Below, piece after piece: positions 1,547 through 14,490 of a DNA stretch of 64,000 nt. Under the pieces are notes generated by a model. The model was not told where the DNA came from. It saw only the letters and a list, made by a program, of their open reading frames with translations, and did no database searches. This DNA is from Eledone cirrhosa (Eukaryota): contig OZ024753.1 in assembly GCA_964016885.1 (NCBI GenBank), positions 20,274,001-20,338,000 of the forward strand, written 5' to 3'. The number at the start of each line of letters is the position of its first letter. Positions within the stretch are counted from its first letter, which is position 1. The translations under genes were made by a program, and so were the position numbers.

Positions 1547-1592
1547 TTAGAGATATGAGAGTTAAACCTAGGTTTAACTCTCATATCTCTAA
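1547..1592. repeat. Perfect 46-bp palindrome (snap-back) at the PLE-A/PLE-B junction
   Basis: TTAGAGATATGAGAGTTAAACCT|AGGTTTAACTCTCATATCTCTAA: the 23-nt arms are exact reverse complements. Confidence 0.95.
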
Positions 1593-1887
1593 CTTCAAAC
1601 ATGTTAAGTTTAAGAATTCTACTTCTTTAGCACATTATATCTGGGATCTTAAGGGAGCTTATATACCATATAGCCTTAACTGGCGTTTAGTAGCACGCTC
1701 TAACCACCTTTCTACACATACTAAGTTTTGTAATCTCTGTATCCTTGAGACACACTCTATAATTTTCTCTAGCGTATCCTTACTTAATAGAAAGTCTGAG
1801 ATATTCTCTTCCTGCCCCCACGCTATTTCTAATTCTTACTTTTATTATAAACCCAAACGTTCTAGTAGTACAAATTGTACCCATTAG
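1564..1887 (+). pseudogene. PLE-B: C-terminal half of a Penelope-like GIY-YIG endonuclease (different family from PLE-A)
   Basis: KPRFNSH...STSLAHYIWDLK...LNWRLV...CNLCILE...LLNRKSEIFSSCPH is homologous to the EN tails at about 345-640 and 14150-14452 but clearly divergent. Confidence 0.85.
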
Positions 1888-3732
1888 CAGATATATTCCA
1901 TTACTTATTTTTTAGTTTAGGTTCTTTTGTTTGCCAACATTATTATTATCATCATTATTATCATTGGTTTTTGATGACTCTTTATTCTAGCTCTCATAAT
2001 CATTTGGCTACTGTACCATATCTGTCTTCTTACGCATTAAATTTTCACTATTACACCTTGTGAATATATATAAGATTACATACTTTACGCCATTTACTTT
2101 ATTTTATTATTATCTTCATTTTTATTTTTATTTTTATTTTTAATTTTATTTTTAATTTTATTTTTAATTTTATTTTTAATTTTATTTTTTATTTTTATTC
2201 AGATTCATCTTTGGATACCCCCCTCCCCTCCCCCTCCCCCCATGCGCACATAAACTTATTGTCAACCCCTCCAAATTGACTATGATTATATTTAACCCCC
2301 CCCCCTCTTTTACGCTCCGTTCTATTATTTATTATAGTATATCGACTATATTTGATGCCCCTTTGCATCCTCCATATATTTCTTCAATTCTGTCCCCATT
2401 AGCCTACCTTAATTCTACTTAAGTCAGTTTTTTAGATATCGTTGTGTATATGATAGTAAAAAATTTCATTCCTTTTTGTAAACATTTGTAACGAAACATT
2501 AAAGTTTATAAACTTTAATGACTTAAACTATAGCTAATATTATACTACCTTATTGGATAGTTTAAATATTTTTAATATTAATTTATCAAATAGGGTTTTG
2601 AGTCATTTACAGGGATTGTTTTCCTTAGTTTTTACCTAACTACTTGACCGCATGTGAGACCTAAATGTATATATTTGTTTTTTTTTTTGTAATTTCCGGT
2701 TGATTATATTTATTTATTTTATTCTATATTTTATATTCTATATGTTATTTGAAATACTACTGGGCATCATATTTACTATTTACTATTCACTGCCTGGCAC
2801 TTACTTACACATCCACATATGTCTGTCTACTAACCTTGTAATTATAAGTATTTATATATTATTTTATGTCAATTTATTTTATATAATATATTATATTATA
2901 TTGTATTGTAATATTGATCCTTATTACTTACTGTTCATTATATGTAACATTATGGTATTTAAACTTTATATATCATGTAAGATGTCTGTATTTTTTTCTG
3001 TACCATCATAATGTTTTTTGAGTATTGTATAATTTATTTTTACTCATTTACTCTGTAACCCAGTATGAATCGATTTGTATACATTGTTTATTGTAAAGGT
3101 TAGTACATTGTTAATATATTATTATTATATTATTATTGTGACATCTATATTGTTTGTGTAAATTAACCGGGGATTATCTATTATATTGAATTATATAATT
3201 TTATTGTTTATTATTTATTATATGTGTTTCTTGTAATTATATCATATTATTGCCTCATGTATATTGGGTAGATGTATTGGTATTATTATTATTATTATTT
3301 TCACTCTTATCGTGCTTATTTTTATATTCAGACTCCTAATAAGGTTTAATTTGTGTAGTTGAAGATAGATGTGCGTATTGTTGTATGTGTGTGTGTGTGT
3401 GTGCGTGTGCGCACATAGATACATGTGCATATTGTACCTTTTGATTTTTATTGTAATTTTAATGTTGGTAAAGGTATATTATTATAATGTATTATATTAT
3501 ATTACATTGTGTTATATATAATTCCTGCTCTATATAACCACCTTTGTTTAGCTCTAGGTTATTTGCTTTGGACTATATTTGTAATATGGTTCTTAATGTT
3601 ATATACATCCTTAGTTATTCTTATTATATATTTTTATTATTTTTGTTATATATTTTTGCAAGACTTTAGTGTATGTACACTCCATATTCTTCGGAGCTTC
3701 CGGCTTGTATCTGCCGATATTACTTCTTGTTG

Positions 3733-3786
3733 TTTTAATTGCCCTGATGAGTCCTTAATAGGACGAAACATTGTTGGCTAATAAAA
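3733..3786 (+). ncRNA. Minimal type I hammerhead ribozyme
   Basis: TTTTAATTGCC-CTGATGA-GTCC(TTAATA)GGAC-GAAA-C(ATT)G-TT-GGCTAATAAAA. It has an intact core, a 4-bp stem II, a very short stem III, and stem I GCC/GGC with imperfect extension. Confidence 0.85.
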
Positions 3787-3826
3787 ACTTTTGATGTATT
3801 AAAGGCTTCTTTGTTTTACTCTCTTA

Positions 3827-4018
3827 ATATATATATATGTATGTATATATATATATATATATATATATATATATATATATATATATATATATATATATAT
3901 ATATATATATATATATATATATATGTATATATATATATATATATATATATGTATATATATATATATATATATATATATATATATATATATATATATATAT
4001 ATATATGTATATATATAT
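3827..4018. repeat. (TA)n microsatellite (others at about 4985, 5628, 7035, 11270, 13790, 17362, 22065, 24800, 25100)
   Basis: Read directly. These tracts generate the spurious YIYI ORFs. Confidence 0.98.
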
Positions 4019-4060
4019 TCAGGTTTGAGGTTCACCACTGTATAGAGCTGGTCTATTCCG

Positions 4061-12167: not shown

Positions 12168-12180
12168 TATATATATATAT

Positions 12181-12752
12181 TCCTACTGGATTTTAAGTTG
12201 CCTTAAAAAGCAACTACACAGCCATTTCTATTCTCCATATATTCCATCATGTTTTTCGCTGTGATCATTCTTCTCTCCCCTTCTACCTACCTATTGCATT
12301 ACTTTCTCCTCTCACCCTTCAATTTCTCCCTCTCCCTCCCTCGCCTGACCGTTTAGCAGTTCTCCTCTCACTTACAACTGCGGCGTTTGGACATGTGTCC
12401 CTCTCCTGCCTCTCCACTACTCAGTCTTGAACTTAAGTTCTCGTATTGAGTGGTCTTGGATTTCCTACCAACAGTTGTTCGCATATTGCTCGGTTTGTTT
12501 GTTTTTTTTGTTCGCTATTTTGTTACTGTTTTCTCTTTTCTTTCCCTTTGCTCCTTCTTCCGTTTTCCCAATAACTTACGCAGTTATTGAACGCCCTGGG
12601 CGGTAGATATCTTGTCTTTAAAGCGTAGAAATATCCGAAACCCCCAGTAGACAACTGATAAGGACCCTCCCCGCCGTTCTTGCTTTCTTCGAATTCCCAC
12701 TGTATTTTAAGTTACCTTAAATAGCAACTACACAGCCATTTCTATTCTCCAT
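12181..12752. mobile_element. Unclassified element with about 58-bp terminal direct repeats, between (TA)n tracts
   Basis: CTACTGGATTTTAAGTTGCCTTAAAAAGCAACTACACAGCCATTTCTATTCTCC at 12183-12236 recurs at about 12698-12750. The interior is pyrimidine-rich, like family D. Confidence 0.55.
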
Positions 12753-12766
12753 ATATATATATATAT

Positions 12767-14452
12767 AAGTTAAAACAGTGAAATAAAAAATCAAGTCATT
12801 AGAAATATACTTCACTGCTTTACGATCGTTTCTAGGTGATGATAATACATCGTAACTATACTTCGTTATCGATCTATGTAAGATTAGTTACAAAAAAACA
12901 GTTAAGGAAAATATTTACTTACATGCATATCACCAGCTTTTGTCAAAAGCAATGAGAATTTTATTCAAAATTAGTAGTAAATTAGTAGTAAATTGAGTTA
13001 TATGACCTTATTTGGAGGTAGCTGAAGAACAAACCAATCAGATTGTTTTTTTCCCATATGATGTTAAGATGAAAAATAATTCACTTTAGTTGAGGTCATG
13101 ACCCTTTGAAAGGAATGGTTGAATGGTGTTAACAATAGAATTGCTATAAAGAATATATTAGGAAAAGGGGGATTGTCAAATTGATAGTTGAATGTATATG
13201 GTATAGTGAAGTTTAAAAGTAATGTAAAAATTAAATGTTGAGTTGTATTGTATGGAGTTTTTAGGTGAATATAAATTATGGCCATGACAAGGAAAGATAT
13301 TATATTAAAAGATGAAAATTATAATAAGATAATGAAATACAGTAATACAATAATATAATATAATGTAACATAATACAGTACTGTGTGGTAAATTGTACAT
13401 AGTATAATACAGCGTATGATACGTCTTAAAATATTTTCAAGTATGTCCATGTATAAATAATCAAACTCAGATAAATGCATATTGACATATAGTCAAAACG
13501 CATAAATTTCATAGATCACAAAGTGCATATACCCACATTATAGATAGAGGTATTATTATATTGATACTCAATTAAAAACATACATACGCATAAATAGATG
13601 TAAACATATACATACATCTATATATGTGCACACAATCATATACATATATATTTATATATATATATATATATATTTACATATACACACATATACACACATA
13701 TATATGTATGTACACACACATACATGTACACACACACATAAATACTCATACACACGCATTTACACATACACACATACACATATATCTTTATATATTATAT
13801 ATATATATATATATATATATATATATATATATATATATATATATATATATATATATATATATATATATACATATATATATATATATATATATATATATAT
13901 ATATATATATATATATATATATATATATATATATATATTCACATATCATACATACATAGATACATATTTACTGATCCAATTATGGGTGGTTGTGTACCTT
14001 GTTGCCCTTAGTCATTAACGCATAAATCTAAGAAAGCTAAAAAATTAAAAAGAAAGTAAGAAATAAGCATGAATGCGTATAATTAGGGGAAAGGGATACT
14101 AACAAATGTTACGCTATATAGAATTATAATGAGTTGCTATTTAGAATATTTAATTAGGTTTATAGTATTTAAATGTTTTTCGTATACGGTCATTACAAAC
14201 TATAATCAGTTCCTGCCTTTTATTAAATAAATCGTCTTTAGATTTAGTAATTTCCAAGATCTCCTCTGAACATAACCTGCATTCTCTCCTGTTCCCAAGA
14301 TATGGAGTTCTTTGTAGAATGGTGTTCCACGATAGCTTGAAATCTATTTTTTTCTTTTTATAGTTATTTACTGCTTCAGCTAAAGATGTGGTGTTAGCTA
14401 GTTTAGTATTGTTAAAACTACTAGAGTGTGCGTAATATCTTTTCTTAAATGT
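12767..14452 (-). mobile_element. PLE-C inverted pLTR arm (EN tail, 3' region, HHR)
   Basis: It is the reverse complement of 15513-17231. It includes ORF 14150-14455, TFKKRYYAH...LSWN...CRLCSEE...FNKRQE...CND. Confidence 0.92.
12814..12954 (-). ncRNA. Hammerhead ribozyme, U3-A8 core variant (inverted-arm copy)
   Basis: Reverse complement of 17039-17180, with the same TTGACAA core and GAAACGATCGTA. Confidence 0.6.
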
Positions 14453-14454
14453 CA

Positions 14455-14490
14455 TATACTAAGTTTTTGAGTATATAAAAACTTAGTATA
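14455..14490. repeat. 14-bp-stem hairpin at the PLE-C inversion junction
   Basis: TATACTAAGTTTTT-GAGTATAT-AAAAACTTAGTATA. Confidence 0.9.

Follow-up and report, generated by a model that had tools for sequence, protein, structure and literature searches.

Hairpins at the 5' truncation points of Penelope-like elements in Eledone cirrhosa as likely products of cDNA fold-back, a minority route of insertion

How does a truncated retroelement copy come to begin with a hairpin? The question is posed by a 64,000-nucleotide (nt) stretch of the Eledone cirrhosa genome (contig OZ024753.1, positions 20,274,001 to 20,338,000; hereafter the window), in which positions 1-25994 are AT-rich, (TA)n-rich, animal-like repeat DNA. 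An earlier note, made from the letters alone, had described four hairpins there, placed them at the 5' truncation points of Penelope-like elements (PLEs), and proposed that the cDNA folds back at a natural micro-palindrome, primes its own second strand and then jumps along the cDNA, as the general source of PLE 5' inversions. Four hairpins, H1 to H4, do stand where truncated repeat copies begin, and at least two of these copies are Penelope-like. H1 and H4 lie at PLE 5' truncation points, and we consider it likely that they were made at insertion by fold-back of the cDNA, as a minority route. The hairpins, to which no strand is assigned, are:

1547..1592: H1, a perfect 46-nt palindrome with 23-bp arms, no loop and 0 mismatches; the left arm is the copy
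4061..4150: H2, with 44-bp perfect arms, a 2-nt loop and 0 mismatches
11076..11191: H3, with 56-bp arms, 7 mismatches and a 4-nt loop, directly after (TA)n
14449..14496: H4, with 15 perfect bp and an 8-nt loop over 14454-14491, or 20 bp with 1 mismatch over 14449-14496

These hairpins are beyond the level of chance. A scan of the entire window recovered all four of those previously described, with some corrections: H3 had been given as about 50 bp at 11077-11190, without its mismatches, and H4 as 14 bp at 14455-14490, with the loop correct. When the 23,572 unmasked bases of 1-25994 (simple repeats masked) were subjected to 60 local dinucleotide shuffles, perfect stems of at least 14 bp, of which the window has 3, appeared in no shuffle, and those of at least 12 bp, of which it has 4, averaged 0.03. 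H3, being imperfect, is outside this count; its fold has a z-score of -14. Matches of H1, H2 and H3 to miRNA families in Rfam were discarded, being far under the gathering scores and reflecting hairpin shape only. The scan also returned a fifth palindrome that had not been described (2497-2520; perfect 12 bp, zero loop), within the untranslated part of the element that follows H1; given the null mean of 0.03 it may mark another junction.

What are the elements behind the hairpins? Word-index protein searches gave no match, but an exhaustive search with the frame to the right of H1 matched 2115 proteins at E<=0.001 and returned 150 of them. Eight of the 150 were aligned, and this alignment retrieved 108 loci: 79 in metagenomes (from the best 80 of 532 confirmed stretches), 28 in genome contigs and 1 in viral contigs. 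A 714-position profile was built from related full-length open reading frames. The 28 genome-contig loci (L081-L108) carry animal-type PLEs in bacterial genome assemblies, 16 of them in one assembly, and are probably host-DNA contamination. In the profile the reverse transcriptase (RT) comes first and the endonuclease follows, a C-terminal GIY-YIG domain with CCHH residues (H, CxxC and a final H in the translations). The profile matches 1552-1824 with positions 614-705, and the sequence from 14471 onward from position 435, so that the right arms of both H1 and H4 are PLE coding sequence. The elements they open are:

366..1546, minus strand: decayed PLE copy of a second family, with RT, Cys-rich linker and GIY-YIG (profile 353-707)
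1568..3826, plus strand: H1 element, a 5'-truncated PLE with the C-terminal half of GIY-YIG (1570-1887) and a long AT-rich untranslated part, ending in (AT)n
3738..3782, plus strand: minimal hammerhead ribozyme motif (Rfam Hammerhead_1, 29.1 bits, E 0.0019; below the gathering score of 34)
3827..4018, no strand: (AT)n tract from the H1 element towards H2
4019..4060, no strand: 42 bases between (AT)n and H2, whose longest matches elsewhere in 1-25994 are 9-mers
4107..4984, plus strand: H2 element, a PLE-like non-coding 3' part with a hammerhead-like core at 4882-4923, ending in (TA)n
11136..11268, plus strand: H3 element, a short repeat 3' end, ending in (TA)n
14469..17360, plus strand: H4 element, a 5'-truncated PLE from the thumb region onward (profile 435-708 in pieces), with an Asn-rich linker, Cys-rich motif, GIY-YIG and untranslated part

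By their translations and the order of the profile the H1 and H4 elements are of the endonuclease-bearing PLE type, with a C-terminal GIY-YIG domain downstream of the RT. Only the minus-strand copy retains the RT motif GIYRDD itself; the truncation points of the H1 and H4 elements lie downstream of it. A Cys-rich linker (CNCRNK-x-C/Y-P-x4-C) precedes the endonuclease in the minus-strand copy as well as in the H4 element. Pfam gave no match in 7 fragments of the window, and a sub-threshold GIY-YIG match in one of 6 homologues. Naiad and Chlamys were considered and set aside, as they require an N-terminal endonuclease. The layout (domain order, hammerhead motif and (TA)n ends) appears to be that of the Neptune/Nematis-type PLEs of Craig et al. 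(2021, PMC8557442), which have RT, Cys-rich linker, C-terminal GIY-YIG, hammerhead, (TA)n and an adjacent inverted truncated copy; the likeness is one of layout, not of phylogeny with named references, and holds at the level of the group rather than the clade.

Since the H2 and H3 elements are non-coding, it is their context that suggests PLE truncation points there as well. The hammerhead-like core of the H2 element was recognized by pattern, with no Rfam match among those listed, and the surrounding sequence (4844-4989) recurs at 21329-21474 with 82% identity; one of the 9-mer matches of 4019..4060 falls at 4901-4909, across the arm end. For the H3 family there is no profile match near 11076-11268 and no hammerhead core pattern, and no sense-orientation hammerhead was found in the H4 or H3 elements; the pointers of the H3 family to PLEs are its (TA)n ends and a head-to-head pair at 22116-23382.

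The case for fold-back is best documented at H1, where the right arm encodes a conserved F-K-x-R-F-N-x-H stretch from R onward and the left arm breaks it. At the position of the conserved F the window has V, whereas 102 of the 109 anchored homologues have F (41 of the 150 failed the anchor pattern), and proline at the H1 codon occurs in one of the 109. A comparison with sequencing reads covered one stretch, 300-2090. Within it, a short-read contig (X2, record 14; 128 nt, depth 9.5) spans 1457-1584, flank and apex together, with 4 differences and no gaps, which places the H1 junction in the short-read data at single-copy depth. Contigs of the family (X1, depth 596, and X4, from a second species) align only from 1568, and upstream of this point they continue with 13 and 20 unlike letters, respectively; the left arm is thus not part of the family, nor is the hairpin part of its consensus. 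The H1 hairpin is therefore real and copy-specific. The earlier reading of H1 and H4, with the right arm as coding element sequence and the left arm as its copy, is borne out by the profile and the homologues, and at H1 by the family contigs. Its proposal of priming at a natural micro-palindrome, AAACCTAGGTTT, is not: the family contigs begin at 1568, proline is found in that single homologue, and two related loci with junction hairpins (L058 and L098) have no natural stem. The natural palindrome at H1 was probably just CTAG.

To the left of H1 stands the minus-strand copy, which is 5'-truncated just before GIYRDD and lies head-to-head with the H1 element. Its family is abundant in the reads, and blastn gave no match between it and the plus-strand copy. 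At 1546-1547 the H1 left arm passes directly into the sense strand of this different PLE family. Such a two-family head-to-head junction could reflect either an insertion with target deletion or one compound event.

H4 is the only junction that joins a hairpin to a long inverted arm. Its parts are:

12763..14452, minus strand: long inverted arm, a copy of 15513-17232, whose outer end adjoins (TA)n
15513..15516, plus strand: ACAT microhomology at the start of the inverted arm (4 nt; chance of at least 4 nt about 0.03)
16479..16650, plus strand: 172-nt insertion that came later and is confined to the right arm, with relatives at 23797-23979 and 25801-25966

Coding sequence begins at the H4 loop, and an in-frame stop lies just to its left. 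The T run of the left arm is therefore not natural coding sequence, and little natural pairing would have been available at the turn; we infer that untemplated A residues paired with T5. Read along the cDNA strand, H4 consists of a turn, 15 copied bases, one mismatch and then ACAT; these four bases continue the hairpin and also match 15513, where the 1.7-kb inverted arm starts. The long arms differ in 12 of 502 proximal and 34 of 789 distal columns (2.4-4.3%), and this divergence, together with the one-sided insertion, shows that H4 is not a read fold-back. The H4 element extends about 128 nt beyond the end of the inverted arm, and each ends at (TA)n. A jump along the cDNA would account for the junction, and so, equally well, would priming of a second cDNA on the other target strand, with ACAT as the point of annealing. 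A separate observation concerns the long Asn-rich linker between thumb and Cys-rich motif (14680-15380), which resembles the Asn-rich inserts of Adineta Penelopes.

How common are such hairpins at PLE ends? In the related loci, 85 coding 5' boundaries have 60 nt of flank or more, and 71 are left after removal of 1 duplicate and 13 second members of head-to-head pairs. Hairpins with a score of at least 13 and a centre within 45 nt of the boundary occur at 5 of the 71, against a permutation mean of 0.54 (0 of 10,000 permutations reach 5), and at none of 118 3' coding ends in these loci. Omitting two loci in which the hairpin lies at a contig end (L057 and L074) leaves 3 of 69 (binomial P 0.005; Fisher test against the 3' ends, 0.049). 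These boundaries are profile-based and imprecise, and the set favours long copies and misses non-coding truncations. The enrichment supports the earlier note's reading in that PLE 5' junctions do undergo snap-back, but only in a minority of cases, at about 4-7% of coding truncations in the related loci. A comparison of 4 of 6 junctions in the window with these 5 of 71 (Fisher P 0.001) was not used, the window having been picked for its hairpins. The apexes fall at scattered profile positions (31, 397, 421, 434 and 688 in the loci; 435 and about 620 in the window). L058 has the same anatomy as H1 (23 bp, no loop), and a 97%-identical sibling in the same contig has no natural palindrome. Set against an 85% sibling, L098 proves to have a natural loop, of 7 nt, and to lack a natural stem; loops of 7-10 nt are found in H4, L083 and L098.

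The same loci bear on whether fold-back generates the long inverted arms of PLEs. Two further head-to-head pairs in the window serve as controls:

21245..21474, no strand: head-to-head pair of the H2 family, without junction hairpin (best stem 4 bp)
22116..23382, no strand: H3-family pair, likewise head-to-head, with (TA)n at both ends and without junction hairpin (best stem 5 bp)

Neither of these two junctions has a hairpin, nor does any of the 16 head-to-head junctions in the related loci; near the L101 junction there is a stem of 9 bp, but this is natural coding sequence inside the direct arm and was not counted as a fold-back. The 16 inverted arms duplicate downstream sequence in 6 cases and upstream sequence in 5, with 1 ambiguous and 4 running off the contig. 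In the 5 upstream cases, where the arm ends inside the contig (L027, L029, L083 near 1474, the second junction of L084 near 3080, and L095), the first cDNA cannot have templated the arm, which is twin-priming-like. The full model of the earlier note, with fold-back at a natural micro-palindrome, a self-primed second strand and a cDNA jump as the general source of PLE 5' inversions, does gain from H4, where one strand carries hairpin, ACAT and the 1.7-kb arm without a break and the first cDNA contains the whole arm, and from the 6 downstream arms, which are what it needs; for H4 taken alone, a cDNA jump and a second priming event stand about level. The hairpin-free junctions and the upstream arms nevertheless make it improbable, as do the lack of a natural stem in L058 and L098, the natural palindrome at H1 that was probably no more than CTAG, and the ends of the H4 arms, each at (TA)n about 128 nt apart, both strands being nicked and extended by PAc, which has two RT start sites (PMC11167929). 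Snap-back likely does not explain most long inverted copies of PLEs, and a reading of the hairpins as the record of their formation is not supported.

H2 and H3 probably arose in the same way as H1 and H4, although they invite a different account. The 7 mismatches of H3 (3 transitions and 4 transversions, only 2 of them G-U pairs on the plus strand) look like neutral decay, the arms diverging by 12.5% in a copy that is 15-16% from its relatives. From 11183 onward this copy matches 22116-22216 (minus strand) and 23282-23382 (plus strand) at 86-90%, and both of these window copies lack the hairpin. We regard it as possible, if not favoured, that neither H2 nor H3 is a cDNA fold-back: H3 would then be inherited, and H2 either inherited or a fold-back of target DNA (4019-4104 as original, 4107-4150 as copy), with H1 and H4 untouched. 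Both are non-coding, and no relative of either stretch was found among the 108 related loci, so that none covers H2; two of these loci, L093 and L099, each have, next to (TA)n, an imperfect hairpin of about 105 nt that is inherited; and target-side inverted duplications at L1 5' junctions are on record (3 cases, 0.3%; PMC10191854). The hairpin-free relatives of H3 and the neutral look of its mismatches point the other way, towards a hairpin made at insertion. Non-coding imperfect hairpin repeats with a common apex motif are seen at L093 4898-5002, L099 2047-2151 and L077 2540-2596, those of L093 and L099 forming one inherited family beside (TA)n or TATA. A motif common to the H3 family and four hairpin repeats in the loci (CGAG..GTCGAGG) is a post-hoc pattern and was not used; a literature search for a Crypton link to it returned nothing relevant.

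We suggest that H1 and H4 formed in the following way. Target-primed reverse transcription would start at a (TA)n site, and the cDNA would stall; its free 3' end would turn back with only 0-2 paired bases, or with untemplated A residues pairing with a T run, as may have happened at H4 and L098. The end would then be extended on itself by 15-23 bases at H1 and H4 (15-76 overall), and a few matching bases, such as ACAT at H4, would link it to the opposite broken end. As expected of R2-type snap-back, both junctions carry reverse-complemented element sequence. Their position and the identity of the original arm are directly visible at H1 and H4, and copy-specificity at H1; the priming chemistry and the enzyme are matters of inference. 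A host end-joining polymerase seems somewhat more likely than the element RT to have extended the end, as the same product is known from R2, L1 and plain double-strand-break junctions. Self-priming at insertion, as first proposed, thus stands as the likely origin of H1 and H4, stripped of its natural stem and of its link to long inversions.

Several observations weigh against this interpretation. A mismatch at 1567 could, through the contig clipping rule, hide a natural imperfect 8-bp stem. Despite the abundance of the H1 family, the reads give six joints in 300-2090, all of them skips, with 0 strand changes (in a listing where arms under about 28 nt would not show and 321 loose ends are not displayed), and the read check is limited to H1 among the four hairpins. 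L074 looks primed by a natural imperfect stem and thus possibly had pre-existing inverted microhomology as a primer, of which L058 and L098 have none. The inherited hairpin of L093 and L099 means that not all such hairpins are made at insertion. Finally, a zero-loop turn, as in H1 and L058, cannot form a paired hairpin, so annealing-primed snap-back is not the full explanation.

The zero-loop apexes are where the alternatives have most to offer. In one, which we hold to be unlikely but worth stating, the PLE RT, which is telomerase-like, makes a stem-free U-turn onto the nascent cDNA, leaving zero-loop palindromes at arbitrary points; the 'antisense template' proposed in 2013 would then be the cDNA, and the sense strand could continue into a second cDNA, even of another family, as at 1546. 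In another, the cDNA end is made double-stranded, sealed as a covalent hairpin and opened off-centre. Hairpin-forming transposases leave P nucleotides in this manner, the off-centre opening of a sealed hairpin giving a palindromic overhang. Sealing would explain, with no need of a natural stem, why some apexes have a loop of 0 or 2 nt (H1, H2 and L058), but it leaves the 7-10-nt loops (H4, L083 and L098) unexplained and its arms of 23-76 bp would far exceed P nucleotides; the excerpts of the literature examined yielded no hairpin-forming activity of PLE proteins, and we think it improbable as well. The proposal made for Adineta Penelopes in PMC3846280, in which an antisense RNA serves as the template for self-priming, shares the head-to-head polarity and is indistinguishable from cDNA priming by sequence alone. 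It appears very improbable here, with apexes at scattered internal coding positions, copied arms that stop after 15-76 bases where the direct copy reaches the normal 3' end, and templating by sense RNA demonstrated in vitro for PAc (PMC11167929). That the hairpins are read or assembly artefacts is scarcely credible. H2 is perfect and outside the read-covered stretch, and L057 and L074 lie at contig ends, the latter with extra inverted pieces; yet H1 is present in a short-read contig that differs from the window in 4 of 128 letters, H3 has its mismatches, and the arms of H4 are diverged with a one-sided insertion.

How much of this is new? In Adineta vaga Penelopes, palindromes of 18 bp and 38 bp at pLTR 5' ends and inverted junctions have been attributed to self-priming with an antisense molecule as the template (Arkhipova et al. 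2013, PMC3846280), so that both the palindromes and the self-priming reading were already in print; what we add is a modest refinement. As described there, those elements are like the present ones in having palindromes at head-to-head junctions of endonuclease-bearing PLEs and in their Asn-rich inserts, and unlike them in that the apexes here are at internal coding truncations, copy-specific at H1, and often without a long inverted arm. Snap-back of cDNA is a named low-frequency 5' junction class of R2-protein insertions (Zhang et al. 2024, PMC11371274; PMC11331408), in which the cDNA 3' end likewise primes synthesis on the cDNA before joining; R2, however, is a non-LTR element studied in cultured human cells at rDNA (PMC11371274), whereas these are germline PLE copies at (TA)n. 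Snap-back microhomology-mediated end joining (PMC5728401) likewise involves primer repeats that are inverted and short (down to 2 nt), a limited amount of synthesis and joining by a new microhomology, but occurs at nuclease breaks without reverse transcription, and the available text leaves the zero-loop apex unaccounted for. Small-hairpin self-priming with 2-bp homology is also described for L1 junctions, where twin priming would fit the 5 of 16 head-to-head PLE junctions (PMC10191854; bioRxiv 10.1101/2024.12.14.628481); in contrast to H1 and H4, where element DNA was copied, L1 inverted duplications copy target DNA (PMC10191854).

Our literature search found no paper tying PLE palindromes to cDNA snap-back, within a search outside of which lay most subscription journals, including older PLE papers. 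PMC8557442 and PMC11167929 name completion of the PLE 5' end and formation of the inverted structures as open questions, and to these the junctions contribute natural evidence that the self-priming molecule is likely cDNA. They indicate that hardly any pairing is required for the turn, which is a side route, and that most inversions come about in another way. The remaining surprise is the zero-loop, stem-free turn, and the purified PLE protein that now exists would allow a direct test of whether the RT alone makes such turns.

The window contains several other repeats. A 269-bp direct duplicate (6499-6767 and 7277-7545) is 100% identical between its copies and opens with a hairpin of 10 bp and a 4-nt loop, the second copy coming after (TA)n. 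At 9661-10777, 190-bp inverted repeats with 34-bp sub-repeats flank a GC-richer stretch of 737 bp that has open frames and a Cys-rich segment, with no Pfam match. The repeat at 11321-12170, which may be Helitron-like, has internal duplications and ends in CTAGT before (TA)n. A 48-bp GC-rich minisatellite occupies 7582-8097 in about 9 copies, and a 47-bp satellite, present in about 809 copies and strongly skewed between the strands, fills the remainder of the window (25995-64000).

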